Below, piece by piece: positions 8,506 to 27,537 of a DNA stretch of 64,000 nucleotides. Under the pieces are notes generated by a model, which saw only the letters and a list, made by a program, of their open reading frames with translations, had not been told where the DNA came from and ran no database searches. The position numbers and the translations under genes were made by a program. The stretch comes from a virus. Each line of letters begins with the position of its first letter. Positions within the stretch are counted from its first letter, which is position 1. Location of the stretch: IMG/VR virus record IMGVR_UViG_3300031993_000069; one strand, given 5' to 3'.

Positions 8506-8519
8506 AATCGGCATCACAT

Positions 8520-8596
8520 TGGAGCGTAGCTTAGCTGGTTAAAGCACTCGGCTGATAACCGAGAGACCGCCGGTTCAAATCCGGCCGCTCCAACCA
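8520..8596 (+). tRNA. tRNA-Ile(GAT)
   Basis: Acceptor TGGAGCG/CGCTCCA, anticodon stem CTCGG/CCGAG with loop CTGATAA, CCA. Confidence 0.8.
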
Positions 8597-8600
8597 ATCT

Positions 8601-8675
8601 TGGGGAGTAGCCAAGCGGTAAGGCACGTGGCTTTGAACCATGTATGCGAAGGTTCGAACCCTTCCTCCCCAGCCA
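8601..8675 (+). tRNA. tRNA-Gln(TTG)
   Basis: Acceptor TGGGGAG/CTCCCCA, loop CTTTGAA, CCA. Confidence 0.8.
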
Positions 8676-8743
8676 GTTAGAGCCTATACTTATTTCTAAA
8701 AACTTCCGACTGCAAATCAGAATAATATAGTTAGGCCAAAATT

Positions 8744-8817
8744 AGGGGTATCGTCCAACGGTAGGACTACGGTCTCCAAAACCGTCTATCTGGGTTCGAA
8801 TCCTAGTACCCCTGCCA
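8744..8817 (+). tRNA. tRNA-Trp(CCA)
   Basis: Acceptor AGGGGTA/TACCCCT, anticodon loop CTCCAAA, G73, CCA. Confidence 0.85.
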
Positions 8818-8821
8818 ATGT

Positions 8822-8909
8822 AGAAGCTTGTGTGAGCGGTTGAAACAGTTGGTCTAGAAAACCAATATGCTGAAAGGCATCGAGGGTTCGAATCCCTCAG
8901 CTTCTGCCA
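8822..8909 (+). tRNA. class II tRNA-Ser with anticodon loop CTAGAAA (anticodon AGA, A34)
   Basis: Acceptor AGAAGCT/AGCTTCT, G73, long variable arm TATGCTGAAAGGCAT, anticodon stem TTGGT/ACCAA. Confidence 0.6.
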
Positions 8910-8928
8910 AAAATATTTAAAAAAAGTA

Positions 8929-8957
8929 TTTACAACCTAAATAAATGGTTGTATAAT
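8929..8957 (+). promoter_or_regulatory. sigma70-like promoter
   Basis: TTTACA-N16-TGTATAATAT. Confidence 0.6.
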
Positions 8958-9190
8958 ATGAATGTGAATATGAGGACTGAAAAGACCATCACTCAGTAAG
9001 TTTGAATAGAGTAGGTATGACGACTCCTGACACCGCTTAGTCGTCATGTCTGTGAACAAGATTTCACAGCGGCAGGCTAATGCCGTAAAACTTAGTCTAG
9101 GGTACAGCTGATGCGAACGTGGCAAAGGCCGAGGCCGAAGAAGGGCATAACAGGAGCGGACACCCTCTAAAGAGTGAGGCCACCAGATAT
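8958..9190 (+). ncRNA. unidentified structured ncRNA candidate (~230 nt) transcribed from the 8929 promoter
   Basis: ORF-free and GC-enriched. Contains several perfect hairpins (ATGACGACT...AGTCGTCAT, CTGTGAA...TTCACAG, CGGCA...TGCCG). Ends where tRNA-Glu begins. Confidence 0.35.
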
Positions 9191-9267
9191 GGTGCCGTGG
9201 AGAAATGGTTTAACTCATCACCCTTTCAAGGTGACATTCACGGGTTCGAATCCCGTCGGCATCACCA
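9191..9267 (+). tRNA. tRNA-Glu(TTC)
   Basis: Acceptor GGTGCCG/CGGCATC, anticodon stem TCACC/GGTGA with loop CTTTCAA, CCA. Confidence 0.8.
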
Positions 9268-9272
9268 AATTT

Positions 9273-9359
9273 GGAGAGCTGTGATAATTGGTAGTCGGGC
9301 GGTCTTGAAAACCGTTGGGTCGAAAGGCCTTCAGGGTTCGAGTCCCTGGCTCTCCGCCA
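9273..9359 (+). tRNA. tRNA-Ser(TGA), class II
   Basis: Acceptor GGAGAGC/GCTCTCC, loop CTTGAAA, long variable arm, G73, CCA. Confidence 0.85.
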
Positions 9360-9467
9360 TTATCACTTATTAGTACCCACTTGCTCAATACTAGTAATGA
9401 GCAGACAAAAAAGAACGCCAGGTGAAATAAATTTTAAGGGTTTAAGTTCAGAGTAGCCACTTATCAT

Positions 9468-9544
9468 GGGTCACTAGCTCAATTGGTTAGAGCAGCCGGC
9501 TGTTAACCGGCAGGTTGTGGGTTCGAGTCCCTCGTGGCCCGCCA
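9468..9544 (+). tRNA. tRNA-Asn(GTT)
   Basis: Acceptor GGGTCAC/GTGGCCC, loop CTGTTAA, CCA. Confidence 0.8.
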
Positions 9545-9682
9545 TACGGTCCTTAGATATATTACCTTCTCGTGGTGGGACTGAACAGCTAAAGGATACT
9601 TGGAATTAATAGTATCGGCTAGACGAAACTTATATCGTAAAGACACGACTGGCCTGACGTGCGTAAATAACGGCCACCAAAT

Positions 9683-9757
9683 GGATCGCTCGTATATCGG
9701 TTAGTATACTTGGCTGTCTACCATGGGAGGAGGGTTCGATTCCCTCGCGGTCCGCCA
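9683..9757 (+). tRNA. tRNA-Asp(GTC)-like (atypical anticodon stem)
   Basis: Acceptor GGATCGC/GCGGTCC, loop CTGTCTA, T-arm GAGGGTTCGATTCCCTC, CCA. One mismatch in the anticodon stem and a pyrimidine at position 37. Confidence 0.5.
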
Positions 9758-9945
9758 TTGGAGCCTATACTTATTTCTAATTTGAAGATTCCAAGCCGCC
9801 ATTCGTAGGTTCGAATCCTACCATACCAGTATGGTATGTAGCCAAGCGGGAAGGCAGCGGCCTCAACAAAGCCAGTTAGGCCAAAATTAATTAAAACAAA
9901 TAAAGGAGATTAAGCTTATGTAATTATTTTAAAGGAGAAAAACTT

Positions 9946-10200
9946 ATGAATAGTTACTTTCGTAAAAAATACGAGAAACAAAAGCTTAAAAAACTAGCTG
10001 AAAAATGTGCTGGTTGGTGTGGCGGCAGCTATTATAGCGAAAGAAAAGGCCGTTACATTCGTTTTTGGAAAAGCCAAGGTAAAAATTCCTTCTGGGCTAC
10101 CGAAAAAAGATATGGCAGACGCATCTATCGAAGAAAGGCTAATAAAGTTGATTATAAATTAGCTAAAAAAGCCTTCGATCTTTGGTGGAATGTTTGGTAA
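9946..10200 (+). CDS. small basic hypothetical protein (84 aa)
   Basis: ORF with RBS AAAGGAG; Lys/Arg-rich. Confidence 0.5.
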   Translation: MNSYFRKKYEKQKLKKLAEKCAGWCGGSYYSERKGRYIRFWKSQGKNSFWATEKRYGRRIYRRKANKVDYKLAKKAFDLWWNVW

Positions 10201-10232
10201 AATGCTGTATAATATTAAGAGGTATACTCAGT

Positions 10233-11192
10233 ATGACTAAAATTATCCAAAATTTTTCAAGCAAAAAGCATATTAAAGCACTTCCTGTATTTGATATATT
10301 ACTTTGGAGTGCTGGATTACTTAATTTTAAAAAATTAGGCTATAAAACGAAGCTCTATTGTGAAAAATCAGATATTCCCTTCTTAAAGCGCTGGGGTTTA
10401 TATGATCTCTATGATGAAATTGATAGTAGATATCTAACAAAATTAGAGGAAGATGAGCGCTTTAAACAAATTGATGGTAATTGGTTTTGGTCTGTAAGAA
10501 AGCTATTTTGCATTGAACATGAATATAGTCTTAAATCAAAAGATAAATTCATGTATTTCGATACTGACATCTTACTTTATGACCATATTGAATTGCCAGA
10601 TTGGGCAAACCTATTCGTCTGGTCTATTGAAGAAGAGCCTATTTATATTCCTTGGGAATTCATGTCAGTTCCAGAAGGTTATAAAAAGCCTGAAGAATTC
10701 GATGATGACATGATTGCCTATAATTGTGGTATCTTAGCATTCAGCGATAAAGAAAAGTTTGAGCAATATTTTGCTGAATACTTGAAATTTACACAAGGAA
10801 ATCCCTGTAAATTATTACAAGGAGCTAATACTTCTGAGAAAACCCTCAAAAATATTTGGGCCTGTAATGCAGAGCAACGTATCCTATTAAATATTTCTCG
10901 TGCTGGAGACTGGAAAACTGTTATATTTGCAAATCCAGAGCAAGAAACCGGAATTCTTGGTTTCTATAAGGGCGGTAAACATTTCTATTTACTTCGTGCA
11001 ATTCTAAGAGATTTCACAGATGAAACTCAGGAGTCATTTAGAAACTTCTGGTTAGATATGTATAATGAAAATATCAAAGAATGCTTAGAGGTATTAGAAA
11101 AAGAAAATCCAGCACAATTAAATATATTCTTAGAAATTCCTTGGATTAAAAATTTATATAAATATAATTTCAAGGTAAAAGAATATAAGTAA
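10233..11192 (+). CDS. hypothetical protein (~320 aa)
   Basis: ATG at 10233 follows the TGTATAATAT promoter (10205) and RBS AAGAGG. The track ORF 10182 start lies upstream of the promoter. Confidence 0.6.
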   Translation: MTKIIQNFSSKKHIKALPVFDILLWSAGLLNFKKLGYKTKLYCEKSDIPFLKRWGLYDLYDEIDSRYLTKLEEDERFKQIDGNWFWSVRKLFCIEHEYSLKSKDKFMYFDTDILLYDHIELPDWANLFVWSIEEEPIYIPWEFMSVPEGYKKPEEFDDDMIAYNCGILAFSDKEKFEQYFAEYLKFTQGNPCKLLQGANTSEKTLKNIWACNAEQRILLNISRAGDWKTVIFANPEQETGILGFYKGGKHFYLLRAILRDFTDETQESFRNFWLDMYNENIKECLEVLEKENPAQLNIFLEIPWIKNLYKYNFKVKEYK

Positions 11193-11203
11193 AGGAGATA
11201 GCA

Positions 11204-11494
11204 ATGGGCGAAGATGTTTGGACATTGGGGCTATTTACCCTAAGAGACTACAACCATACAGAACCAGAATTAAAGGCTTGTGACCATTTATTCTGTATTA
11301 CTTATCAACAAGGGCAAGAGGAATATCCAGTAATGCTCTTGTGGAAACGCGGTAAACGATGTTTTACCAGGACCTGTAATGCTCCAGGTCTTAAATTACC
11401 AAAAGATATGCAAACAGCTATGTATCTATCAAGATTATCTACGGCTGCCATTCGTATCTTAAATGGTGAAAAGTTTAACCTATTTGATATATAA
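11204..11494 (+). CDS. hypothetical protein (96 aa)
   Basis: ORF with RBS AAGGAGATAGCA. Confidence 0.5.
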   Translation: MGEDVWTLGLFTLRDYNHTEPELKACDHLFCITYQQGQEEYPVMLLWKRGKRCFTRTCNAPGLKLPKDMQTAMYLSRLSTAAIRILNGEKFNLFDI

Positions 11495-11508
11495 AATAGG
11501 CACGACAT

Positions 11509-11594
11509 TGCGGTGGAGTGGCACGGACAACTATAAACCATTCTAGGCTCATAACCTAGCGATACCGGGTTCGACTCCCGAGCACCGCAACCAG
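11509..11594 (+). tRNA. tRNA-Met(CAT)-like with an enlarged D-region
   Basis: Acceptor TGCGGTG/CACCGCA, anticodon stem CTAGG/CCTAG with loop CTCATAA, T-loop TTCGACT, CCA. Length 85 nt with a 16-nt D-loop. Confidence 0.5.
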
Positions 11595-11875
11595 GAGTAG
11601 TTTTTGTTAGTTTTTGGAGCGCCAAGATCAAATACAAACTAACAGACAGTGTGACTATGTATATGATAGCACTATTCTAAAAATCGAAAGGATATACACC
11701 AGAAATTTGGTCGGCTAGTTGGCGTAAACCTAGCGATAGGAGCGTTTGCAACAGACCCTCAATAACTGCAGTGAGAGGGCAAGCACGAGCCTCCAAGAAG
11801 AGACTGCGATGGATGAAATATTCCTAGTGCACTTGGGCCGAGGACACAAGGTTCACTGGTTAAAGAACAAAACAC

Positions 11876-11951
11876 GGGGTATTGGTGCAGCGGTTAACAT
11901 GCCTCCCTGTCACGGAGGAGACCACGGGTTCGAATCCCGTATGCCCCGCCA
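11876..11951 (+). tRNA. tRNA-Asp(GTC)
   Basis: Acceptor GGGGTAT/ATGCCCC, anticodon stem CCTCC/GGAGG with loop CTGTCAC, CCA. Confidence 0.8.
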
Positions 11952-11980
11952 GTTCTTATTCAATTTATTTAGGAGGAGTT

Positions 11981-12283
11981 ATGATTATTACATTTAATGA
12001 TTTTTATGTCAATGTAACAGAAAATAATGTGCATATTCATGACTCTTACAAGATAAAAGGTAAGAAAAGAAAGCTTGAAATCATTAATGCAATCATAGCT
12101 TTCTGTCCAGAAGCTTTCAAAACTAGAACAATTAAGTCAGTTCTGAGAGAGTGGCGTGCACATAATGTCTTATATAAATTACATATTGCTAGAAATAGCA
12201 CAATGCATACAGACATTGAAGCACATCAAAAATTATTTTATAAAATTAGCTATTTACTTATTAATATATTCGGTATAGAATAA
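11981..12283 (+). CDS. hypothetical protein (100 aa)
   Basis: ATG with RBS AGGAGGAG 5 nt upstream, directly after tRNA-Asp. Confidence 0.5.
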   Translation: MIITFNDFYVNVTENNVHIHDSYKIKGKKRKLEIINAIIAFCPEAFKTRTIKSVLREWRAHNVLYKLHIARNSTMHTDIEAHQKLFYKISYLLINIFGIE

Positions 12284-12289
12284 GTATAT

Positions 12290-12365
12290 GGCTGGGTAGC
12301 CAAGTGGTTAAGGCGTCAAGCTCATACCTTGAAGATCGTCAGTTCAAATCTGACCCCAGCTACCA
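12290..12365 (+). tRNA. tRNA-Met(CAT)
   Basis: Acceptor GGCTGGG/CCCAGCT (G1·U72), loop CTCATAC, CCA. Confidence 0.7.
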
Positions 12366-12370
12366 GGTAT

Positions 12371-12445
12371 GCTCGCTTAATTCAGCGGGAGAAGGCAATC
12401 CTTACAAGATTGAGGTCGGCAGTTCGAATCTGTCAGCGAGCACCA
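12371..12445 (+). tRNA. tRNA-Val(TAC)
   Basis: Acceptor GCTCGCT/AGCGAGC, anticodon stem CAATC/GATTG with loop CTTACAA, CCA. Confidence 0.75.
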
Positions 12446-12644
12446 CGGCATGTATGCAATTATAAAACGCAGCCTACCGGTAAAGTAGGTGCTCTGAGTA
12501 GTCTCGAAGTAAGAGCTTTGTGGAATATTGCTAAATCGAGACTTTAGTAACAATATTCTAGGTGCAATTCCCACCATGCCAACCACCGCTCGGCTAGAGC
12601 ACAGCAAATCATACGGCTGTGTAGGAGAATCCCCGAGCAACCAC

Positions 12645-12718
12645 GCGGGAATAGGACAGTGGTAGTCCATCTGCTTGCCATGCAGACTACGCGGGTTCGA
12701 TTCCCGTTTCCCGCTCCA
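12645..12718 (+). tRNA. tRNA-Gly(GCC)
   Basis: Acceptor GCGGGAA/TTCCCGC, loop TTGCCAT, CCA. Confidence 0.8.
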
Positions 12719-12789
12719 CCAGGACAGATAAAGATTAGGTTCTTTATTAGGTTCTATGGCTGGACAAATCGATAAAACCAGCCACATTT

Positions 12790-12863
12790 GCGGGTATCGT
12801 CCAATGGTAGGGCCTCTGCCTTCCAAGCAGAAGATACCGGTTCGATCCCGGCTACCCGCTCCA
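12790..12863 (+). tRNA. tRNA-Gly(TCC)
   Basis: Acceptor GCGGGTA/TACCCGC, loop CTTCCAA, CCA. Confidence 0.8.
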
Positions 12864-12892
12864 TGCAGTATTTAGAAGGAGAAAATGCAATG

Positions 12893-12985
12893 AAAACACT
12901 TAAACTCAGTAAACTAAGTCGCCGTCGCTGTATAGCATGTTTTCGTTGTTGTCTTATAAATACCGCGTTAGCTCAATTGGATTAG
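12893..12985 (+). CDS. small Cys-rich basic peptide (30 aa) candidate
   Basis: RBS AGAAGGAGAAAATGCAATG. The peptide MKTLKLSKLSRRRCIACFRCC... has CxxC..CC spacing. Overlaps the 5' end of tRNA-Arg. Confidence 0.2.
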   Translation, partial: KTLKLSKLSRRRCIACFRCCLINTALAQLD

Positions 12986-13039
12986 AGCATATCGCTACGA
13001 ACGATAAGGTTGTGGGTTCGAGCCCTACACGCGGTGCCA
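12962..13039 (+). tRNA. tRNA-Arg(ACG)
   Basis: Acceptor ACCGCGT/ACGCGGT, loop CTACGAA, CCA. Confidence 0.8.
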
Positions 13040-13045
13040 GACATA

Positions 13046-13122
13046 GGATAGGTACCCAAGTGGCTTAAGGGAGCGGTCTGCAACACCGTTATTCGTGGGT
13101 TCGAATCCCATCCTATCCTCCA
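13046..13122 (+). tRNA. tRNA-Cys(GCA)
   Basis: Acceptor GGATAGG/CCTATCC, loop CTGCAAC, CCA. Confidence 0.8.
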
Positions 13123-13125
13123 AAT

Positions 13126-13200
13126 GGTCGTATAGCTCAACGGCAGAGCGGGCTCCTTATAAGGGCTAGGTTCCTGGTTCGAATCCAGGTGCGACCACCA
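13126..13200 (+). tRNA. tRNA-Ile(TAT) (AUA-decoding type)
   Basis: Acceptor GGTCGTA/TGCGACC, anticodon stem GGCTC/GGGCT (2 G·U) with loop CTTATAA, CCA. Confidence 0.55.
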
Positions 13201-13301
13201 AAACATGTTAATAGCACGCTCCTTTATGAAAAATCTTCAATATAAAGGAGTTTATTTATTTCAGCAAATATTGTATAATATAAAAGCAAGGAGCTATAAA
13301 A

Positions 13302-13820
13302 ATGATTGGTAAACACTTAAAAGACTATAAAAAAGCTTATAAAGCTGACCGCAGAGAAAACAGAAGAACTTGCGTTAAAAGAAATTCTGATTGGAAAAAA
13401 CGCTGGTTACCATTTATTAAGTATGATCATGATTTTGACGGCTTCTTCCTAATTGAACTTATGGTTCATAAATTACATATTATGCTTGATTACTATGACC
13501 ATGGCAAATATTGTATGCAAGTCGATGAGAGCCGACTTGAAATTGTTGAAAGCTTAAAAGAAGCTTGTAGACTTGGTGATTTAATCTTAGAGGATGATTT
13601 CAATGAACCTGCCTATAAAGTTATGATGGAACACCACCGTATGTGGACTGAGCCATGCAAAGACAATAGTCATCTTTGTGAAATTAAAATGGAATGGGAT
13701 AGCCCAGAGGCTAAGGCTGAATATGATAGGCTTGAAAAAGAAACTGATGCTCTCAGAGAAAAGACTATCGATGAATTCTTCGATTTTGTTAGAAAACATT
13801 ATCGTGAATGGTGGGATTAA
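13302..13820 (+). CDS. hypothetical protein (172 aa)
   Basis: ORF behind TGTATAATATAAAAGCAAGGAG. Confidence 0.6.
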   Translation: MIGKHLKDYKKAYKADRRENRRTCVKRNSDWKKRWLPFIKYDHDFDGFFLIELMVHKLHIMLDYYDHGKYCMQVDESRLEIVESLKEACRLGDLILEDDFNEPAYKVMMEHHRMWTEPCKDNSHLCEIKMEWDSPEAKAEYDRLEKETDALREKTIDEFFDFVRKHYREWWD

Positions 13821-13861
13821 TTAGTCCTCATCGAAAATGTCATTGAAAAAAACTAGACATT

Positions 13862-13952
13862 GGAGGAATACCCAAGAGGCCGAAGGGGACGGTTTGCTAA
13901 ACCGTTAGTGGTCGCAAGGCCAGCGAGGGTTCAAATCCCTCTTCCTCCGCCA
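13862..13952 (+). tRNA. tRNA-Ser(GCT), class II
   Basis: Acceptor GGAGGAA/TTCCTCC, anticodon stem ACGGT/ACCGT with loop TTGCTAA, long variable arm, G73, CCA. Confidence 0.8.
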
Positions 13953-13957
13953 TCTAT

Positions 13958-14034
13958 GCCCCGGTAACCGAATTGGCATAGGTACTAGACTTAGAATCTA
14001 GGTTCTGTGGGTTCAAGTCCCACTCGGGGTACCA
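13958..14034 (+). tRNA. class I (77 nt) tRNA with anticodon TAG (a Leu anticodon) and short variable loop
   Basis: Acceptor GCCCCGG/TCGGGGT (two G·U), anticodon stem CTAGA/TCTAG with loop CTTAGAA, 4-nt variable loop, T-loop GGTTCAAGTCC, A73, CCA. Confidence 0.55.
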
Positions 14035-14037
14035 TAT

Positions 14038-14415
14038 GGGCTCGTACTGGTTTCGATTGGTATTTGATGCTTATGACTACAGCAAGCTGATAACTTACTA
14101 TCAAACAAAAACAAACGACAAAACAAACTTTATGGCACACCTTGCCAACAACCAAATGGTTGCTGCTCGCGCCTAGTTCGCGAGAATGGTGATTGAGCTA
14201 GATAAGGTCGAATTTAGTTCTCTATTAATCAGACCTCGATGTTTATATCTAAGTAACTCCATATAAATGTTTAAATAAAGAGTAGACAACTGCTAGTATC
14301 GGATCGAAGGACTTGAGGTTCGCCGATAAAAAGAATATTTCTCAGGTTAAAGCTGTAATTAACGTTGTGGGGGTTTGGTATCAAGACAGGAGTTCGATTC
14401 TCCTCGGGTCCACCA
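14038..14415 (+). ncRNA. ssrA: tmRNA (transfer-messenger RNA)
   Basis: The 5' end GGGCTCGTACTGGTTTCGATTGG resembles the canonical tmRNA 5' end GGGGCUGAUUCUGGAUUCGAC. The 3' end AGGAGTTCGATTCTCCTCGGGTCCACCA pairs with the 5' acceptor and has G3·U70 and A73 (Ala identity). Length 378 nt. The internal frame ...NNQMVAARA-TAG is a candidate tag ORF. Confidence 0.75.
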
Positions 14416-14419
14416 TAAT

Positions 14420-14506
14420 GGGCGAGTGGCGTAACTGGTAGCCGCAATGGTCTAAGAAGCCATTGACCGAAAGGTCGTAGGGGTTCAAGTCCCCTCTCGC
14501 CCACCA
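14420..14506 (+). tRNA. tRNA-Leu(AAG), class II, A34
   Basis: Acceptor GGGCGAG/CTCGCCC, anticodon stem ATGGT/GCCAT with loop CTAAGAA, long variable arm TGACCGAAAGGTC, A73, CCA. Confidence 0.6.
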
Positions 14507-14561
14507 GAGTTATCTTTAATAATATTGTATAATATATTAGATATTGAAAGGAATTTATCTT

Positions 14562-14894
14562 ATGTATAGTTTACAAGAATTAATTGAACATGGATATGTC
14601 GATAGTATTACAACTGATGGAACACATCTTGGTGATGGTTATACTATTGTTGTTAAACTAAGCAGATATTCTATTGGTAAGATTACAATTAATGTTGGTA
14701 TTGATGAATACTTAGATGATGCTGTTACGCTTATTAATGGTATTATTGATATTCAAGAAAGCTTAAATAAAGAAGCTAAACCGGAAGAAAAGCCAACTAT
14801 TAGACATGTAACTGATCCAGATGAAATAAAGGAAATACTTTCTGGAACAGCAATTAAAGACACAAAAATTGAACCAGAGGATTATGCGGAATAA
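14562..14894 (+). CDS. hypothetical protein (110 aa)
   Basis: ATG behind promoter TGTATAATAT (14525) and RBS GAAAGGAA. Confidence 0.55.
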   Translation: MYSLQELIEHGYVDSITTDGTHLGDGYTIVVKLSRYSIGKITINVGIDEYLDDAVTLINGIIDIQESLNKEAKPEEKPTIRHVTDPDEIKEILSGTAIKDTKIEPEDYAE

Positions 14895-15073
14895 TGTATC
14901 AAATTATTAAAGACGATAAATATTATCTATATAATGATATAGGCGAAGAATTAATGACAATTACCTTCGACAATTCATTACCAGGAGACCAAGTAGTTAT
15001 TACTACACAGGATGAAGTTTATGCTGGTCCAATAAAATTTGTTACTTTTTCTGGAGATATTCCAAAAGAGTAG
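14894..15073 (+). CDS. small hypothetical protein (59 aa)
   Basis: ATG overlaps the upstream stop (ATAATG). Coding-like composition. Confidence 0.35.
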   Translation: MYQIIKDDKYYLYNDIGEELMTITFDNSLPGDQVVITTQDEVYAGPIKFVTFSGDIPKE

Positions 15074-15089
15074 CTTGTATATTATTAAT

Positions 15090-15186
15090 AGGGGCTTAGT
15101 GTAACGGCAGCACAACGGTCTTCAAAACCGCAAAGCGGGGGCCTCCAAAACCCCAGGTGCGGGTTCGAATCCTGCAGCCCCTGCCA
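15090..15186 (+). tRNA. Trp-like opal-suppressor tRNA, anticodon TCA, with an unusual 25-nt extra arm
   Basis: Acceptor AGGGGCT/AGCCCCT, G73, CCA. The D-arm and anticodon stem ACGGT/ACCGC are nearly identical to tRNA-Trp(CCA) at 8744, but the loop is CTTCAAA. A 25-nt insertion AAAGCGGGGGCCTCCAAAACCCCAG between the anticodon and T arms forms a hairpin. Own promoter TTGTATATTATTAAT sits immediately upstream. Confidence 0.7.
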
Positions 15187-15252
15187 TATAGAGCCTGTAC
15201 TTATTTCTATCACAAACCTTGAAATTTGCACGCAGTAGTCAGGCCATTTATT

Positions 15253-15438
15253 TTTATGAAATTTAAGTATAGAATTATTTGGGTTAATACAGTTAAAGGA
15301 AAACAAGAATATGTTGATATCGATGACCAGCATATTGTATTGTTTGTCGCTAAGAAAAAAGTTAGCGATGGAATGCAAGGAGTCATCATTCAAGTTTCTG
15401 GTGATCCATCTATGACTGACCCAGATGATGCTAGCTGA
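15253..15438 (+). CDS. hypothetical protein (61 aa)
   Basis: ORF downstream of motif A. Confidence 0.3.
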   Translation, partial: FMKFKYRIIWVNTVKGKQEYVDIDDQHIVLFVAKKKVSDGMQGVIIQVSGDPSMTDPDDAS

Positions 15439-15504
15439 CCGGCTATTGATGCGAATGCTTCTGAAGCTGAAAATAAAATAATTTAAAAAAATTAAAAAAA
15501 ACTA

Positions 15505-15534
15505 TTTACAAAAAATAAAAAAGTATTGTATAAT
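15505..15534 (+). promoter_or_regulatory. sigma70-like promoter
   Basis: TTTACA-N16-TGTATAATAAT. Confidence 0.6.
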
Positions 15535-15539
15535 AATAT

Positions 15540-16180
15540 TGTGAGTGTTAAGCAAGCACTCCAAAAGTGTTCTTTGAAAAATTTTAATTGGCACCTCGAT
15601 GAAGACATCTTGCACGATGGTCGAGGCTCGGCTCTAAGATGATGATAACTGGTGGGATACTGCTGGGTAAGTTGAAACTTCCAAAGTGATGAAGAAGTAA
15701 ACCTATTTAATTAGGATTGAGTCGATGGCGCAATTTGTTGCAGCGATTTAGATGAAAACACATATGCGGGTCCGACAAGAAGCTCTGGCCGTAAGGTCAT
15801 CTCACCTGTGGTATTAAGCCTGAGAAACTTAATGCCCGGTAACTCAAAGGAAGGACGCGACTTGATGTCAAGAAATTGACTATAACTGGTAATGTGTTTG
15901 TACAAGTAGCCGTATGTCGTACTACAAAGCTTTAACAGGATATTTATTAAATACTTTGCTGAAGCTCGGTGAAAGTTGATAGGTAAAGGTCCTATCTGTG
16001 GAAGTCGTAAGACCATTGGAGAAGTTATAGGGTAGCTCCCTGTGACTCAGCCTCCCGTGAGCATCCATTAATAAAGTCAAGCAATAAGGGTTGTATGGTG
16101 AAGACCGGAAATTAAAATTTTTTAAAGAGCACTTAAAAGTATTGCTAAATTAAGTAGACTTAAAAAGTCAGAAGGAGAAA
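15540..16180 (+). ncRNA. unidentified ~640-nt ORF-free structured RNA candidate
   Basis: Lies between a strong promoter and a small ORF. GC-enriched relative to the genome, with no ORF above 60 aa on the + strand. No RNase P P4 motif (GGAAAGUCC) seen. Confidence 0.3.
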
Positions 16181-16184
16181 AAGC

Positions 16185-16274
16185 ATGTTAAACTTAGTTA
16201 CTGTTAACGTTAGACCTACAGCAACAGCCAAACCAGCGTTGGTAAGTTTTGATATGCTCATGACCTCTGATAGA
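16185..16274 (+). CDS. small peptide (29 aa) candidate
   Basis: RBS AAGGAGAAAAAGC then ATG; followed by a perfect terminator. Confidence 0.25.
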
Positions 16275-16302
16275 TAAGTTAACTTAAAAACTTAACTAAG
16301 AT

Positions 16303-16335
16303 ACCGCAGTTGTGATGAGCAGCTGCGGTTTTTTT
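16303..16335 (+). terminator. rho-independent terminator
   Basis: CCGCAGTTGTGATGAGCAGCTGCGG followed by TTTTTTT. Confidence 0.85.
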
Positions 16336-16506
16336 AAGAAAAAATAACTAGCAATGTAAAACTCATAAGAGAGACGTGACGAAACCAAGGACTTCTGTGC
16401 CTTGGTCCCAAAAGTCTAAGGGATGAAATGAAGCCAGCAGTGCACAAAAAACTTGTTGCCTGATAAAAAAAGAGGCTGGTCAGGCAGAAGAAGAACGAAA
16501 GCTAGT

Positions 16507-16590
16507 TAATTATATGGGCCGATAGTTTAATTGGGAAAATACCCGCCCTGCAAGCGGGAGTTAGGGGTTCAAATCCCCACGTGTCCACCA
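16507..16590 (+). pseudogene. tRNA-like element (Ala-TGC-like anticodon arm, T-arm and CCA) with a non-pairing acceptor stem
   Basis: CCCGC-CCTGCAA-GCGGG anticodon-like arm, GGGGTTCAAATCCCC T-arm and a 3' CCA. The 5' GGGCCGA does not pair with the 3' CGTGTCC. Confidence 0.3.
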
Positions 16591-16595
16591 TTTAT

Positions 16596-16671
16596 GGGGG
16601 TGTAGCTCATCTGGGAGAGCACTTGATTAGCATTCAAGAGGTAGCGAGTTCGATCCTCGTCACTTCCACCA
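16596..16671 (+). tRNA. tRNA-Ala(AGC), A34
   Basis: Acceptor GGGGGTG/CACTTCC with G3·U70 and A73. Anticodon stem CTTGA/TCAAG with loop TTAGCAT. CCA. Confidence 0.6.
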
Positions 16672-16735
16672 GACAGAACCTGTGCTTATTTCTAACGTTA
16701 AATTTGGGATTTAAAAAGTAGCAGCCAGGTCAATT

Positions 16736-16811
16736 GCCGCCTTAGCTCAACTGGCAGAGCAACCGCCTTGTAAGCGGTAGGTTACTGGTTCGATTCCGGT
16801 AGGCGGCACCA
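16736..16811 (+). tRNA. tRNA-Thr(TGT)
   Basis: Acceptor GCCGCCT/AGGCGGC, loop CTTGTAA, CCA. Confidence 0.8.
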
Positions 16812-16815
16812 CTTT

Positions 16816-16892
16816 GGGGGTGTAGCTCAATTGGGAGAGCGCTCGCCTTGCAAGCGAGGGGTTGCGGGTTCAAGTCCCGTCACGTTCCACCA
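16816..16892 (+). tRNA. tRNA-Ala(TGC) with a 1-nt bulge in the 3' acceptor strand
   Basis: Acceptor GGGGGTG with G3·U70, anticodon stem CTCGC/GCGAG with loop CTTGCAA. The 3' strand CACGTTCC carries one extra nt. CCA. Confidence 0.6.
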
Positions 16893-17049
16893 CTAAAATG
16901 TAAGCCTATACTTATTTCTCCTCCTAAATTGTTGGGGGCCTTAGTTAGGCAATCAAAAAATTCATGCCACGGAAGGAAAACCGTATAAACCCTTACAGCT
17001 TCGTTCTTAGCCAGACGTAGACTAAGATAAAGTTAAGCTGATGTAATTT

Positions 17050-17126
17050 CGGGAGTTGGCTCAGCTTGGTAGAGCACTTGATTTGGGATCAAGGGGTCAA
17101 GGGTTCGAATCCCTTACTCCCGACCA
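17050..17126 (+). tRNA. tRNA-Pro(TGG)
   Basis: Acceptor CGGGAGT/ACTCCCG, loop TTTGGGA, CCA. Confidence 0.8.
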
Positions 17127-17251
17127 TTAGAGAACCTGTACTTATTTCTTAGCTTTGGGAGCCGCTGTTTGTTGGTTCGAGTCCAGCCTTCCCGACCATT
17201 ATCGGGAAGTAGGCAAATTGGTAAAGCCGGCGTTTATTAGTCAGGTCATAT

Positions 17252-17327
17252 GCGCTTTTAGCTCAGTTGGGAGAGCGTCTGCTTGACGTGCAGAAGGTCG
17301 TAGGTTCGAGCCCTGCAAGGCGCACCA
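17252..17327 (+). tRNA. tRNA-Val(GAC)
   Basis: Acceptor GCGCTTT/AAGGCGC, anticodon stem TCTGC/GCAGA with loop TTGACGT, CCA. Confidence 0.75.
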
Positions 17328-17331
17328 TTAT

Positions 17332-17408
17332 GCTCCTCTAGCCCAACTGGCAGAGGCAATGAGCTCAAACCTCATTCAGTATCGGTTCGAATCCGATGGG
17401 GAGTACCA
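17332..17408 (+). tRNA. class I (77 nt) tRNA with anticodon CAA (a Leu anticodon) and short variable loop
   Basis: Acceptor GCTCCTC/GGGGAGT, anticodon stem ATGAG/CTCAT with loop CTCAAAC, 5-nt variable loop, A73, CCA. Confidence 0.5.
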
Positions 17409-17427
17409 AAAAATTATTAAAAAACTG

Positions 17428-17456
17428 TTTACAACGCAGAATAAATGTTGTATAAT
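17428..17456 (+). promoter_or_regulatory. sigma70-like promoter
   Basis: TTTACA-N14-TTGTATAAT. Confidence 0.55.
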
Positions 17457-17566
17457 TATGAATGTAAGGTCGCGATGTGTGAGCATTAAACTATCGGCCC
17501 CTCACCTCCGAAAACCGTAGGCCGAGTCGGACCTTATATATAGATTGTTCAAAAAGGAGAAGAGTT

Positions 17567-17647
17567 ATGATGACAATGAACAAGAAAAACATCAAGAATA
17601 GAAAAACTAGAAAAACTAGTTCATTTAGTCATGGCTTAATTCAGTAA
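17567..17647 (+). CDS. small basic peptide (26 aa) candidate
   Basis: RBS AAAAGGAGAAGAG then ATGATG; followed by a terminator hairpin and T-run at ~17678-17712. Confidence 0.25.
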   Translation: MMTMNKKNIKNRKTRKTSSFSHGLIQ

Positions 17648-17772
17648 AACACTAATAATACGTTAACGTAAGATAGAGTGCCGAGTGGTTAAGCCGCCCG
17701 GCATTTTTTCTGGGATTACGTTAGCGCAACGGACAGGGACGACATAAGAGCGTGCTTTTCCAGAAATCACAT

Positions 17773-17849
17773 ACCTCCGTAGCTCAACTGGACAGAGCAT
17801 CGGTCTTCTAAACCGCAGGTTGGGCGTTCGAGTCGCCCCGGGGGTGCCA
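17773..17849 (+). tRNA. tRNA-Arg(TCT)
   Basis: Acceptor ACCTCCG/CGGGGGT, loop CTTCTAA, CCA. Confidence 0.75.
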
Positions 17850-17853
17850 AATC

Positions 17854-17928
17854 GCGTCCATAGCCAAGTGGTATGGCAATCGGCTTTTAACCGATGTACC
17901 GAGGGTTCGAATCCTTCTGGGCGCACCA
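17854..17928 (+). tRNA. tRNA-Lys(TTT)
   Basis: Acceptor GCGTCCA/TGGGCGC, loop CTTTTAA, CCA. Confidence 0.8.
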
Positions 17929-17933
17929 CATAT

Positions 17934-18010
17934 GCCTCCATAGCAAAATTGGCTAATGCACCTGACTCTTAATCAGGGGATTCTGGGTTCGAGTCCCAGT
18001 GGGGGTACCA
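17934..18010 (+). tRNA. tRNA-Lys(CTT)
   Basis: Acceptor GCCTCCA/TGGGGGT, loop CTCTTAA, CCA. Confidence 0.75.
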
Positions 18011-18012
18011 AT

Positions 18013-18088
18013 GCGCCGGTAGCTCAGCCGGTAGAGCACGTGACTTTTAATCACGGGGTCCAGAGTTCGAACCTCTGCCGGCGCACCA
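18013..18088 (+). tRNA. tRNA-Lys(TTT), second copy
   Basis: Acceptor GCGCCGG/CCGGCGC, loop CTTTTAA, CCA. Confidence 0.75.
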
Positions 18089-18090
18089 AT

Positions 18091-18165
18091 GCTGATTTAG
18101 TTTAATTGGTAAAATAATTCTCTCGTAAAGAATAGTAGTGTGTTCGAAACATACAATCAGCACCA
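18091..18165 (+). tRNA. tRNA-Thr(CGT), AT-rich
   Basis: Acceptor GCTGATT/AATCAGC, anticodon stem ATTCT/AGAAT with loop CTCGTAA, T-arm GTGTGTTCGAAACATAC, CCA. Confidence 0.7.
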
Positions 18166-18261
18166 TTAGAGCCTATGCTTATTTCTAGCTCAATGAGAGC
18201 GTTTGACATTTAATCAAAAGGTATAGCTAGGCCATTCTTGATAAATCTACTGTATAATATA

Positions 18262-18500
18262 ATATGGTTGCGATGAATTTTGCAGTTTCGACCCATGTGC
18301 ACAGAAATAGAAACTGCCTATAGGTTAATGTTGACCATAGTTATTGGTGCAGAGTACGTAATCTGCGAGGTAAACTCCGGTGTATGTTCATTCGCCGACC
18401 TATGAAGCTAAAAAATGAACGGAGATAGCGTATAAAAATGATTTATGAAAAGTACGTAACGCCCATGAGGAGAGGCCTCATGCTTCAATAAAAAACAAAA
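18262..18500 (+). ncRNA. unidentified structured RNA candidate (~240 nt) behind the 18250 promoter
   Basis: ORF-free. Ends in the hairpin CATGAGG-AGAG-GCCTCATG immediately before the next tRNA. Confidence 0.3.
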
Positions 18501-18503
18501 CTT

Positions 18504-18579
18504 GCCGGCTTAGCTCATCTGGTAGAGCAATTCACTAGTAATGAATAGGTGGTCAGTTCGAGTCTGGCAGCCGGCACCA
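18504..18579 (+). tRNA. tRNA-Thr(AGT), A34
   Basis: Acceptor GCCGGCT/AGCCGGC, anticodon stem ATTCA/TGAAT with loop CTAGTAA, CCA. Confidence 0.6.
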
Positions 18580-18707
18580 TGAGCCTATACTTATTTCTAA
18601 ATTCGCCTTATAAGCGGGTGGTCGCAGGTTCGAGTCCTGCCGCCGCAACCATTACATTGCGGCGTAGCTCAGTTGGGAGAGCACCTATTTCTAGTTAGGC
18701 CTTTCTG

Positions 18708-18764
18708 AAAAAATAAGCCAAAACTGGCTTATTTTTTATTTTAAGCCAAAATTGGCTTATTTTC
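18708..18764 (+). terminator. tandem rho-independent terminators closing the RNA-gene island
   Basis: AAGCCAAAACTGGCTTATTTTTTATTTT and AAGCCAAAATTGGCTTATTTT. Confidence 0.8.
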
Positions 18765-18792
18765 CAATGTATAATATATTGAGGGTTAAATT

Positions 18793-24158: not shown

Positions 24159-25109
24159 ATGATTAGAGATGCACTCGGTGACAGAATGAAAGGTTATGAA
24201 GCTGTCACAAAAACTACATTAGTAAGCAGAATGCCAGTCATTATTAGATTAGATGGCTGTCATTTCCATACTTTTTGTCGTGGATTTAAAAAGCCATTCG
24301 ATCCTTTAATGGTTAAGACCATGCAAGCAACCATGAAATATCTCTGTGAGAATATTCAAGGCTGTGTTTTAGGCTATACTCAAAGTGATGAAATCACTCT
24401 TGTTTTAGTCGATTATAGAAAGCATAATTCCTCTGCTTGGTTTGATAATGAAGTCCTTAAAATTACGTCAGTCTCTGCTTCTTTAGCAACATTTGCATTC
24501 AATAAATTCTTCAACGAATTCTATCTTGAACAACTTGCTGAAAAGGGTGAAGCTGATGAATATGATTTAGTCTATGATAGAAAACGTAGAATTGGTGCAT
24601 ACTTCGATGCAAGAGTTTTCAATGTCCCAAGAGAAGATGTTACAAACTGTGTTCTTTGGAGACAATTAGACGCTGAAAGAAACTCAATCAATTCTCTTGC
24701 ACAATCTTTATTCAGTCATAAGTCTCTTCAAGGTTTAAATCTTAAAGCTACTATGACTAAGATCGAAACAGAAAAAAGCATTGTCTGGGGTGATTTACCA
24801 ACAACTCAAAAACGTGGTTCTTGCTGCATCAAAGATGTTTGGTATACTTTAGATGATGGTCAAAATGTTAAGAATAAGTCACACATTTGTTATAAAGATA
24901 AAACAGGTGAATTCTATTTTGATGGTGATGGTTTCTACTTCTATGCTACTGGCTTAAAAGATAACCTTAATTGTGCTTTTTCTGCCCAAGGTGTTAAGAT
25001 GAATGTTAAAGAGCATTCTGCTTGGAGAATTGATAATGAAATTCCAAGATTTATCGATGAAGGCAGAGAATATATCGAAAAGTTAATCTATCCAGAAGAC
25101 GAGGAATAA
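24159..25109 (+). CDS. Thg1-like protein (tRNA-His guanylyltransferase / 3'-5' nucleotidyl-transferase family)
   Basis: VIIRLDGCHFHTF...FKKPFDP...GYTQSDEITLVL matches the Thg1/TLP core R.DG..F..F.....KP.D...YGQSDE.S.V. Confidence 0.7.
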   Translation: MIRDALGDRMKGYEAVTKTTLVSRMPVIIRLDGCHFHTFCRGFKKPFDPLMVKTMQATMKYLCENIQGCVLGYTQSDEITLVLVDYRKHNSSAWFDNEVLKITSVSASLATFAFNKFFNEFYLEQLAEKGEADEYDLVYDRKRRIGAYFDARVFNVPREDVTNCVLWRQLDAERNSINSLAQSLFSHKSLQGLNLKATMTKIETEKSIVWGDLPTTQKRGSCCIKDVWYTLDDGQNVKNKSHICYKDKTGEFYFDGDGFYFYATGLKDNLNCAFSAQGVKMNVKEHSAWRIDNEIPRFIDEGREYIEKLIYPEDEE

Positions 25110-26667: not shown

Positions 26668-26883
26668 AATTTAATTATCGTATAATATTTTAGAACTTCT
26701 ATGTAGGGCAATTTTATTCGCTAAATTAATGTGACGACGTAAGTTGTCATTACATAGAAAAGGGCACAACCACGGTAACGTGGCGTCGCAAAACTAAAGG
26801 GCCTTGGGAGAGGCAGCCAGTTGCTTCTGTGAAACCGTTATTCATGGAAGTTTTTTATTTATATGGACAAGGAGAACACACAC

Positions 26884-27537
26884 ATGAAATTAAGAAACAA
26901 ATTAGCAGCTATCACAGCTGCAGCAATGTTAGCATTTGCCGGCTTAGGCTTTGCTGCTTGGACATTCACAAATTCTGTCGAAGTTGAGAAAGAAGCATCT
27001 TCAATTGTTACAGTTGCAGTTGAAACAAATGCAGTTAAGCTTTATACAGATTCTGGTTTAACGGATGAACTAGAAGCGAGTGAACACATTTATTTAATTG
27101 CAGATGCTCCATCAACAGGAGCTGGACATTTAGCAGGAAAAGGATTACATTGGTCTCTTTCTGCTGATAATTCTACAGATCCTATTACTGCACTTTATGT
27201 TGTTCCACAAATTAAGTATAATGCTGAAGACCTTAAGGATATTACAACTGTCAACTCCACAATTACTGCTACTTCTGATGCATTAGTTGTTGAAGATGTA
27301 AATTATACCTATTTCAGTATTGCTGCTTTAGCTATTGATAATGGTGCTTCAACTGTCAATTTAGGCAGTGCAACAACAGATACAGTAATTGCATCATCTG
27401 CTTATACTTTAAATCTTCCAACACTTGAATATACTTATGTACCAACAAATGTTGCTGAAGTTACTGCTATGCATACAGCATTAGCTGCTGCAACTATTAC
27501 ATTCAGCATTTCAAGTGAAATTTCAAGCGTTGCTTAA
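26884..27537 (+). CDS. TasA/camelysin-like secreted protein with SipW-cognate signal peptide
   Basis: The signal peptide ends ...LGFAAWTFTNSVEV, which resembles the TasA/CalY motif GGTWAAFND. Ser/Thr/Ala-rich mature region. ATG at 26884 behind RBS AAGGAGAACA. Upstream motif GCTAAATTAAT at 26720. Confidence 0.6.
   Translation: MKLRNKLAAITAAAMLAFAGLGFAAWTFTNSVEVEKEASSIVTVAVETNAVKLYTDSGLTDELEASEHIYLIADAPSTGAGHLAGKGLHWSLSADNSTDPITALYVVPQIKYNAEDLKDITTVNSTITATSDALVVEDVNYTYFSIAALAIDNGASTVNLGSATTDTVIASSAYTLNLPTLEYTYVPTNVAEVTAMHTALAAATITFSISSEISSVA

Follow-up and report, generated by a model that had tools for sequence, protein, structure and literature searches.

Y RNA-like RNAs of the YrlA type (Rfam RF02553), which are bound by Ro60/Rsr, begin at the 5' end with a Ro-binding motif, after which come V, T, AS (acceptor-like stem-loop), and D elements (PMC4201824). 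In Mycobacterium smegmatis YrlA the acceptor stem is 7 bp long, RNase P cuts in the AS loop, CCA is received in vivo, and both halves remain in the complex after the cut; YrlA and YrlB are encoded upstream of rsr (PMC4201824). The subject here is an element at positions 18581-18701 (+ strand) of a 64,000-nt stretch of viral DNA (IMG/VR record IMGVR_UViG_3300031993_000069), called the window throughout, in which the same tRNA-like parts occur in the same order on another handle. It probably encodes a small non-coding Y RNA-like mimic of transfer RNA (tRNA), and not a tRNA for translation, with a new handle and probably a different protein partner.

Circularly permuted tRNA genes were reportedly found in Cyanidioschyzon merolae by Soma and colleagues in 2007, and are said to occur also in some green algae and in Thermofilum. 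Genes of this kind have a bulge-helix-bulge (two 3-nt bulges on opposite strands, 4 bp apart), at which splicing endonuclease and ligase generate a circular intermediate that goes on to yield functional tRNA. Two-piece transfer-messenger RNA (tmRNA) is made from permuted ssrA genes (tmRNA_permuted in Rfam), whose CCA-containing acceptor loop is opened by processing to leave two paired pieces. At the DNA level, the attC sites used by integron integrase have R''/R' core sites of the form RYYYAAC / GTTRRRY, with AAC/GTT invariant. A C. merolae-type permuted tRNA gene was not found reported for phages in the literature, and neither were phage permuted tRNA-like genes besides YrlA, the handle described below, or the SCO0854/MXAN_6230 (NF041916-type) protein that accompanies it.

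The element at 18581-18701

The element lies directly after tRNA-Thr(AGU), which ends at 18579 and is the last tRNA of an array extending from 7.3 to 18.6 kb (36 tRNA genes, a tmRNA, and a ROOL RNA). From 5' to 3' it consists of a conserved motif A, an anticodon-stem-loop-like hairpin, a T-arm, a closed acceptor-like hairpin, a D-arm, and a motif B that pairs with the first part of motif A (Table 1). A first-pass annotation made from the sequence had given the layout as motif A, T-arm, 3' acceptor strand, ACCA, 6-nt linker, complementary 5' acceptor strand, D-arm, and motif B, and all of these are where it placed them, but it had overlooked the intact anticodon-like hairpin. Since that hairpin is also present, the RNA has all four cloverleaf arms. 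A minimum free energy fold of the whole element gives exactly the A:B helix (P1), the anticodon-like hairpin, the T-arm, the acceptor hairpin, and the D-arm. Relative to a tRNA the order is permuted: the break is at 26/27 in tRNA numbering, and ACCAUUACAU closes the acceptor stem; the loop of the anticodon-like hairpin resembles that of tRNA-Ile(UAU).

Two further permuted domains proposed in the window also have the order claimed for them: the one at 17132-17247, with acceptor strands CTTCCCG/CGGGAAG joined by ACCAUUAU (ACCA+TTAT), and the one at 9761-9882, with CATACCA/TGGTATG closed by a GTA (GUA) triloop and no CCA. A fourth, described as a degenerate copy (1098-1180), does have a T-arm, but besides this only a 5-bp hairpin, and no D-arm. 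Neither ARAGORN nor the Rfam tRNA model (RF00005) calls any of these elements, or any of the related ones in Table 1, a tRNA, although 37 neighbouring tRNAs are called.

The handle

Motif A occurs 13 times in the window, at the starts of the 13 elements numbered in Table 1, always on the + strand and nowhere outside 671-18598; exact matches to RCTTATTTCT also number 13. Every copy has a pairing motif B 23-95 nt downstream. Together they delimit what is called here a frame: a 9-bp closing helix P1 with two single-nucleotide bulges on its 5' strand (5'-G[A]GCCUA[U]ACU-3' with 5'-AGUUAGGCC-3'), then invariant single-stranded UUAUUUCU. The UAUUUCU of motif A with the preceding C and U forms the core CUUAUUUCU, the deeply conserved part of the handle. 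A second copy of TATTTCT near motif B is found only in the frame at 18581.

In a sample of 29 distinct frames from the window and related contigs, P1 cells are 99% paired, with compensatory double changes in six of the nine pairs and a covariation score of 0.60, as against 0.24 for shuffles and 0.13 or less for slid controls. Because pairing had been demanded when these frames were collected, the test was repeated without that bias, anchored solely on A2 and CTTATTTCT and with the partner sought within 170 nt. A Watson-Crick partner at seven or more of the nine positions was found for 114 of 118 anchors. The non-Watson-Crick cells were mostly G.U (10, vs. two A.C), which points to selection on the transcribed strand as RNA.

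The core, as CUUAYUUCU, is also found in distant phages, with the form CUUAUUUCU in the window, CUUACUUCU in Lactobacillus phage LpeD (Herelleviridae) and at two further loci (L099 and L100; L numbers designate loci outside the window), and CAUACUUCU in alphaproteobacterial phages. Across these lineages the sequence of the P1 helix varies freely while the junction RC-UUAYUUCU is constant, the pattern expected of a protein-binding handle. Rfam searches of the window and LpeD at gathering and permissive E-values gave nothing relevant to the frames, and no match to a hammerhead, HDV-like, twister, or other ribozyme.

The permuted domain and its match to YrlA

Permuted tRNA-like domains were found in 19 cases, including those at 9761, 17132, and 18581. 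Their acceptor strands are complementary at 7/7 positions in nearly all, with unrelated sequences, and are closed in various ways: by GUA, AGA, CUU, or UUU triloops, by CUUCG, by ACCA plus 1-6 nt, by a 33-nt extra hairpin, or by a nested frame. Eleven of the 19 are without CCA, closed by a 3-8-nt loop or an extra hairpin. The break point also differs: in some it is in the loop, in others at 26/27, 28/29, or 29/30 of the anticodon stem. In an alignment of 17 permuted domains, three of them from cultured phages, the T stem and the 7-bp acceptor hairpin are 99.5% paired, with compensatory changes in 11 of 12 pairs, among them all seven of the acceptor hairpin; the covariation score is 0.93 (vs. 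0.28), with ~20 G.U cells and one mismatch.

Positions 23-86 of the YrlA model (114 positions, gathering threshold 69 bits) match all three permuted copies of the window by cmscan, covering the T-arm, hairpin, and D-arm in a short stem. The match within the 18581 element spans model positions 24-84 and has an E-value of 4.9e-8 in a local search and 6.7e-6 in 18.4 kb; some 20 ordinary tRNA-tRNA junctions of the array gave no YrlA match at E <= 0.5. Among cultured phages, scores were 42.3 and 34.7 bits in Ruegeria phage RpAliso, 40.7 in Rhodobacter phage RcXuper, and 26.4 in Rhodococcus phage Weasels2. Since the domain order T, AS, D is that of YrlA, the topology at 18581 is an already known one.

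The likeness extends beyond the order of the arms. As in YrlA, the 5' and 3' ends form a stem carrying (V), T-arm, closed acceptor-like stem, and D-arm; several different RNAs per genome share one common handle, as do YrlA and YrlB; and the RNAs are encoded beside a protein gene and near tRNA repair genes. The 7-bp acceptor stem is shared with M. smegmatis YrlA, which makes RNase P cleavage and a CCA end plausible in the frames. They differ from YrlA in that the handle is P1 plus CUUAYUUCU instead of GNCGAAN0-1G, that they score below the gathering threshold on the full model, that their neighbour is a helical/TerD-fold protein without detectable TROVE homology, and that they are present in many copies embedded in tRNA arrays, many holding only anticodon-like hairpins and some keeping a complete anticodon arm.

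The form with ACCA and a linker resembles the junction of two tandem tRNA genes, which suggests that permuted domains originated when a frame-borne anticodon hairpin recombined with tandem tRNA copies, later versions having swapped this relic for tight loops. The frame at 9761 has a 5' half resembling the phage tRNA-Gln, and its anticodon stem forms in trans (GCGGC with GCCGC). A covariance model of the tRNA-like domain built for this study (R1) also scores ordinary tRNA-tRNA junctions, at 17-52 bits, and was therefore unusable for a census of distant loci. With this model the tRNA-Ile(GAU)/tRNA-Gln junction at 8564-8625 reaches 52.5 bits, far above the other junctions; this and the Gln-like half of 9761 hint at an origin of such domains from neighbouring tRNA genes. 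Matches in Vibrio phages found by blastn were merely two adjacent normal tRNAs.

Frames and their modules across viral contigs

A scan of IMG/VR with motif A gave 35 loci on viral contigs of 4-237 kb (mostly 85-237 kb), which supplied a sample of 70 distinct frames. In 596 Gb of bacterial and archaeal genomes the motif-A 18-mer had 38 matches, of which two were genuine, both on phage-like contigs of metagenome-assembled genomes; the remaining 36 fell by chance within coding genes, as with the 'RAYAYF' of Mfd.

The 70 frames carry hairpins, partial tRNAs, permuted and unpermuted tRNA-like domains, and nested frames. A strict anticodon-like hairpin is present in 30 of them, as compared to 10.4 +/- 2.6 in shuffles, with UUUGGGA, CUUUUAA, CUGCAAA, and CUUGUAA as recurrent loops; the UUUGGGA of frame 9 is identical to the 7-nt loop of the phage tRNA-Pro(UGG) at 17050. 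Frames 12 and 4 exemplify a D-arm and a T-arm, respectively, combined with a hairpin, and whole pseudo-tRNAs in normal order are found inside frames at L029 1861 and L014 683. In nested frames, the acceptor loop of a permuted tRNA-like frame contains, behind its ACCA, a second frame that is small and complete and has a Pro-like hairpin.

Of the 70 frames, 21 follow a tRNA at a distance of no more than 15 nt, and 17 precede one equally closely. In the window, frames in the array occupy tRNA slots, with 1-13 nt separating them from the preceding CCA and 4-8 nt from the tRNA that follows; the exception is the promoter-fed cluster of five frames at 671-1320. There is a strong promoter-like site, TTTACA-18-TATAAT, at 1212-1241, ahead of frame 5, and between the two a LacI-operator-like palindrome, TGTGAGCGGATGACTCACA, at 1247-1265; a similar GTGAGCGG follows the promoter at locus L069. 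The spacers between the first frames (727-788 and 847-971) hold more hairpins, such as CGTGCTTCTAGTCGCCTCTCAAATATCGTAAGCACG, and a long hairpin at ~1339-1398 precedes the ribosome-binding site of the open reading frame (ORF) starting at 1422; these are possible additional RNA elements. At the other end, a pair of terminator-like hairpins, read directly from the sequence and not listed by a consensus scan, closes the RNA array ahead of the next promoter and gene.

Table 1. Frames, their parts, and other features of the window and related loci. Sequences are given as RNA or DNA as indicated; bits are YrlA (RF02553) scores unless otherwise stated.
Feature	Position	Strand	Details and basis
Frame 13: handle + complete permuted tRNA-like domain; last RNA of tRNA array	18581-18701	+	Sequence, minimum free energy fold, partial YrlA match 18617-18685 (40.1 bits)
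Motif A, first part (5' strand of P1)	18581-18591	+	G[A]GCCUA[U]ACU, A2 and U8 bulged; DNA GAGCCTATACT; pairs with 18693-18701
Motif A, second part, single-stranded	18592-18598	+	UAUUUCU (DNA TATTTCT); invariant in all frames
AAA	18599-18601	+	Sequence
Anticodon-stem-loop-like hairpin	18602-18618	+	UUCGC/CUUAUAA/GCGGG, 5 bp, 7-nt loop; sequence, minimum free energy fold
TGGTC	18619-18623	+	Sequence
T-arm	18624-18640	+	GCAGG UUCGAGU CCUGC; sequence, YrlA alignment, covariation
Closed acceptor-like hairpin	18641-18664	+	CGCCGCA / loop ACCAUUACAU / UGCGGCG; 7/7 pairs
Parts of this hairpin	18641-18647; 18648; 18649-18651; 18652-18657; 18658-18664		CGCCGCA; A; CCA; TTACAT; TGCGGCG
UA + D-arm	18665-18682	+	GCUC AGUUGGGA GAGC (DNA GCTC AGTTGGGA GAGC); sequence, YrlA alignment
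A CCTATTTCT	18683-18692	+	Sequence
Motif B (3' strand of P1)	18693-18701	+	AGUUAGGCC (DNA AGTTAGGCC); covariation test
Two tandem terminator-like hairpins + T-runs	18714-18765 (approximate)	+	TAAGCCA AAAC TGGCTTA TTTTTT; AAGCCAAAATTGGCTT ATTTT; read from sequence
Frame 1, cluster upstream of TerD-fold protein gene	671-727	+	
Frame 2, upstream cluster	788-847	+	
Frame 3, upstream cluster	971-1041	+	
Frame 4: handle + T-arm + 5-bp hairpin, no D-arm	1098-1180	+	Starts right after -10-like box TGTATAAT
Frame 5, upstream cluster	1271-1320	+	~100 nt before start codon at 1422
Frame 6: handle + hairpin	8680-8737	+	Loop CUGCAAA (Cys-GCA-like); between tRNA-Gln and tRNA-Trp
Frame 7: handle + permuted tRNA-like domain	9761-9882	+	Partial YrlA match 9797-9859, 28.2 bits
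T-arm; acceptor strands; D-arm of frame 7	9805-9821; 9822-9828, 9832-9838; 9839-9855		Acceptor CATACCA, TGGTATG
Frame 8: handle + short module	15191-15245	+	4 nt downstream of UCA-anticodon tRNA
Frame 9: handle + anticodon-like hairpin	16676-16731	+	UUAAA/UUUGGGA/UUUAA
Frame 10: handle variant + short G+C-rich hairpin	16902-16951	+	AAGCC...GGCA
Frame 11: handle + permuted tRNA-like domain	17132-17247	+	Partial YrlA match 17163-17233, 24.4 bits
T-arm; acceptor strands; D-arm of frame 11	17171-17187; 17188-17194, 17203-17209; 17210-17228		Acceptor CTTCCCG, CGGGAAG
Frame 12: handle + D-arm-like hairpin + anticodon-like hairpin	18169-18233	+	Loop CAUUUAA
Nested frames	L022 10895-11072; L002 5465-5643 (reverse strand)		
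Candidate partner protein, 671 amino acids	1422-3437	+	N-terminal helical repeat + TerD-fold beta sandwich, NF041916 (MXAN_6230/SCO0854) kind
tmRNA of the phage	14038-14415		Inside tRNA array; tag DKTNFMAHLANNQMVAARA
Full-length ROOL RNA	15571-16127		Rfam score 213 bits; mid-array, between UCA-anticodon tRNA + frame 8 and next tRNAs
Thg1-like 3'-5' nucleotidyltransferase ORF (tRNA 5'-end repair)	24159-25109		Pfam E 1.6e-30

The neighbouring TerD-fold protein

The commonest gene beside frames is a homologue of the ORF at 1422-3437, whose family members are ~650-720 amino acids long. More than 500 close homologues were found, and 1,455 clusters at 50% identity; all 35 members tested match NCBIfam NF041916 ('MXAN_6230/SCO0854 family'). 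The window protein itself has no Pfam match, and its sole PHROG match (33734) is annotated as of unknown function. Its AlphaFold model (predicted local distance difference test, pLDDT, 80) has an N-terminal helical repeat and a C-terminal beta sandwich, and both features by which a TerD assignment was judged, the beta-sandwich fold and conserved acidic metal-binding residues, are present. PADLOC found nothing, nor did Foldseek against the PDB.

A relationship to Ro60 was considered for this protein. Comparison by hhalign to TROVE (one sequence, two profiles) was negative, with a probability below 1% with the TROVE alignment, and Pfam scans of two alignments of the family (A1 at E <= 10, A4 at E <= 0.1) gave no TROVE match. 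With the profile-profile comparison negative, the protein is not called a Ro60 relative. A TROVE/Ro60 gene was not found elsewhere in the window either, by tblastn with the Ro of Bxz1 or in Pfam scans of 20 window ORFs.

The association of frames with this gene is conserved over considerable distance. All 20 IMG/VR loci with a close homologue (47-80% identity) have at least one frame 60-160 nt upstream of its start codon, and at 13 of 14 distant loci (26-31% identity) there are 2-5 tandem frames, seen as CTTAYTTY copies, within 500 nt upstream, CTTAYTTY being enriched 24.5-fold. Among cultured phages, the gene is immediately preceded in RpAliso by four frames (two with YrlA-like domains) and followed by one for CCA-adding enzyme; RcXuper has the same layout, including the CCA-adding enzyme gene; LpeD has two frames, with GCTTACTTCTA, upstream of orf166; and in Weasels2 four frames, of which one is YrlA-like, immediately follow gp266, RtcB being close by. 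Rumen or gut phage contigs likewise have tandem frames beside the TerD-fold gene. In both RpAliso and RcXuper, a permuted tmRNA of the two-piece type adjoins the frame cluster (L095 2829-3050, L096 1396-1812).

Two frames each also occur upstream of a 'TerD family protein' gene in Sulfitobacter and Salipiger genomes (Rhodobacteraceae). In Sulfitobacter sp. R18_1 (JAGHRG010000001.1, L114 5540-8115) the order on the chromosome is a tRNA gene, two frames (one YrlA-like), and the TerD-family gene, surrounded by SIR2, phospholipase-like, and DUF5131 genes, a context of defence-island or prophage-remnant type.

Interpretation and alternatives

A function for the frame RNAs can be proposed from these sequence patterns. 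Frames would be cut from polycistronic transcripts by the tRNA-processing enzymes that act on the neighbouring tRNAs, and the handle (P1 + CUUAYUUCU) would be the binding site of the helical-repeat/TerD-fold protein encoded beside them, in an arrangement that parallels the way YrlA and YrlB precede rsr. The tRNA-like and anticodon-loop modules would show tRNA look-alikes to tRNA-handling or tRNA-cleaving enzymes, and the complex might act in tRNA surveillance, repair, or protection during infection, as Y RNA does with Ro60. In the frames at 18581 and 17132, with their 7-bp acceptors and ACCA plus linker, RNase P probably nicks at the 5' acceptor strand (before 18658 in the former), with trimming to CCA; the result would be a two-piece RNA held by P1, for which M. 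smegmatis YrlA is a precedent.

Several observations weigh against this Y RNA-like reading. The best YrlA score in the window, 40.1 bits, is below the gathering threshold of 69, and only the tRNA-like core is involved, model positions 1-22 and 87-114 being unaligned; since R1 gives ordinary junctions as much as 52 bits, a large share of such a signal comes from T-arm and D-arm sequence alone. The Ro-binding motif GNCGAAN0-1G was found in one of the 70 frames, which is chance level, and in none of those in the window (regular expression search from -30 to +40 around the frame start). Most frames hold only short hairpins, whose likeness to anticodon loops is statistical and not proven. To our knowledge, TerD-fold proteins are not recognized as RNA binders, and the proposed link between frames and protein rests on conserved gene neighbourhood, a signal inflated by synteny among related phages. 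Of the rivals considered, none explains the whole pattern as well.

The frames could be protein-independent decoys, stable clamps whose anticodon loops and tRNA bodies soak up tRNA-targeting defence nucleases of the host or other tRNA-binding factors, with the TerD-fold gene unrelated cargo or merely syntenic. Phage tRNA arrays are known to counter anticodon nucleases, and the excess of anticodon-like 7-nt loops over shuffles, the many copies per genome inside tRNA arrays, and the closed acceptor ends, which preclude charging, all fit this idea; it is nevertheless unlikely, since it leaves unexplained both the conservation of a 9-nt single-stranded core and helix from Herelleviridae to alphaproteobacterial and actinobacterial phages and the persistence of frame arrays beside one protein gene at 26-31% identity, and several modules are not anticodon-like.

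Frames might instead act only in cis, as leader or operator of the TerD-fold gene and as spacers or processing signals in tRNA operons, with no RNA working in trans. Those near the gene are in its 5' region on the same strand with no obvious terminator between, and the inter-tRNA positions of others are those of spacers. This is improbable: the gene is 5-17 kb away from the array frames, which have tRNA processing sites on either side, the Weasels2 frames are downstream of the gene, and elaborate covarying tRNA-like domains would be superfluous in a spacer or simple operator.

The first-pass annotation had proposed, as one of two readings, that the elements are circularly permuted tRNA genes maturing through a circular intermediate. 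The gene order that it described (3' part, CCA, linker, 5' part) stands, and is shared with the C. merolae type, as are the short linker after the acceptor 3' end and the pairing of the termini; the proposed maturation is unsupported. In such a scheme the ends held by A:B would be cut and ligated, into a circle or after nicking, and RNase P and 3' trimming would release tRNAs Ile-UAU, Pro-UGG, and one Gln-like. The acceptors at 18581 and 17132 are perfect 7-bp stems around ACCA and a short linker; in eight of the 19 relatives A+CCA is kept, and the linker after it is as long as those between tRNAs; several relatives would regain a perfect 5-bp anticodon stem with a 7-nt loop if the frame were precisely removed (for example L001 8398, L004 2733, L021 3004, L014 546); and the phages carry tRNA repair genes (Thg1-like; RtcB in Weasels2). 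Against this, the paired termini form no bulge-helix-bulge but a plain 9-bp helix with two 1-nt bulges on the same strand. As 11 of the 19 relatives also lack CCA, maturation through a circle is unlikely. Joining the termini does not give a canonical cloverleaf: a rejoined 18581 keeps ~12 extra nt between positions 26 and 27, CCA is not conserved, and the break point is not fixed. The identical frame encloses modules unable to give a tRNA at all, and the anticodons in question duplicate those of normal tRNAs in the array (Ile-UAU at 13126, Pro-UGG at 17050, Gln at 8601). An RtcB ligase, suggested as a check, has no homologue in the 64-kb window, nor was a CCA-adding enzyme or Ro homologue found there, the rest of the genome being unseen. 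That these are true permuted tRNA genes is very doubtful. Permuted ssrA shows that bacteria and phages can have a permuted tRNA-like gene, but two-piece tmRNA has a coding part, pseudoknots, and alanine charging, and the frames, which match tmRNA models weakly and through the T-arm, have none of these.

It is very improbable that frames are DNA-level recombination sites or scars (attC-like, repetitive extragenic palindrome-like, or footprints of elements inserting into tRNA genes, the first-pass annotation having suggested insertions with TATTTCT as target duplication) that shuffle tRNA gene fragments: their arms are indeed imperfect inverted repeats with extrahelical bases around a variable-length centre, GTTAGGC in motif B fits the attC R' core GTTRRRY, copies are nested at L022 10895 and L002 5465, and centres hold tRNA fragments in varied permutations, but TATTTCT belongs to the invariant handle of all 13 window frames whatever their content, the 'GTT/AAC' positions are not fixed and covary (AGU with ACU to AGC with GCU, with A-U to G-C switches in 15 and 13 frames, respectively), every copy is on the transcribed strand, G.U pairs are tolerated and A.C pairs rare, nothing pairs with the asymmetric, invariant UUAUUUCU, the centres fold and covary as RNA does and have T-loops and D-loops that are intact, the compensatory changes of P1 and acceptor hairpin are evidence that the folded strand is under selection, and neither an integrase nor any other recombinase was found among the ORFs flanking the frames.

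Genomic setting

In appearance the 64-kb window is a segment of a large phage genome. Its long ORFs are all on the + strand, among them PhoH, Thg1-like, and SPFH genes, and megablast gave no match, so that no close relative was found among deposited phages. The complement of CUUAUUUCU is found neither in the ROOL RNA nor elsewhere in the window, and docking of frames to ROOL by base pairing was rejected as a candidate. tRNA-His is missing among the 36 phage tRNAs, despite the Thg1-like gene. ARAGORN calls a 97-nt 'tRNA-SeC' with anticodon UCA at 15090-15186, which could be an opal suppressor; if TGA is read as sense some window ORFs become longer, the longest having 1395 amino acids vs. 1040. 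A tRNA at 16516-16587, called by Rfam (40.6 bits) and missed by ARAGORN, has a poor acceptor stem and C at position 33 and is probably a pseudo-tRNA or other tRNA-like RNA.

Downstream of the array, a c-di-GMP-I riboswitch aptamer (26753-26828; 52 bits, above the gathering score) lies upstream of an ORF (26863-27537) without Pfam match. The ~3.7 kb from 29336 to 33019 contain no + strand ORF of more than 151 codons and no Rfam match, and no single stop-codon reassignment opens a long + strand ORF there (29.3-33.0 kb); small genes or an RNA of unknown kind could account for it.

Significance

The tempting reading of this locus, as the first permuted tRNA genes of a bacterial virus to mature through circles, is to be corrected. 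The tRNA-like core is already known from YrlA; what is new, as far as searched, is the handle, the modular arrays in tRNA operons, the anticodon-loop modules, and the non-Ro neighbour. Here the tRNA-mimic domain of YrlA is carried by another handle, itself deeply conserved, and it is this handle that has multiplied, giving families of RNAs whose tRNA-derived modules can be exchanged. The module is present in four cultured phages (LpeD, RpAliso, RcXuper, and Weasels2), and is therefore directly testable.

A wider proposal is offered tentatively, as a serious possibility that we would rate somewhat below an even chance: that this is a widespread ribonucleoprotein system of large phages and mobile islands, in which an NF041916-like protein binds the handle of tRNA-displaying RNA arrays, a Ro60-independent counterpart of the Ro60/Y-RNA machine that would protect, repair, or police tRNAs or bait defence nucleases. 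We know of no Y RNAs with tRNA-like domains other than as partners of Ro60. If the link between RNA and protein is true, this would be a second Y RNA-like system, would give the first functional lead for a protein family of ~1,450 clusters at 50% identity, and would add a new player to the contest between phage and host over tRNAs, at loci that also carry ROOL, tmRNA, and tRNA repair enzymes.

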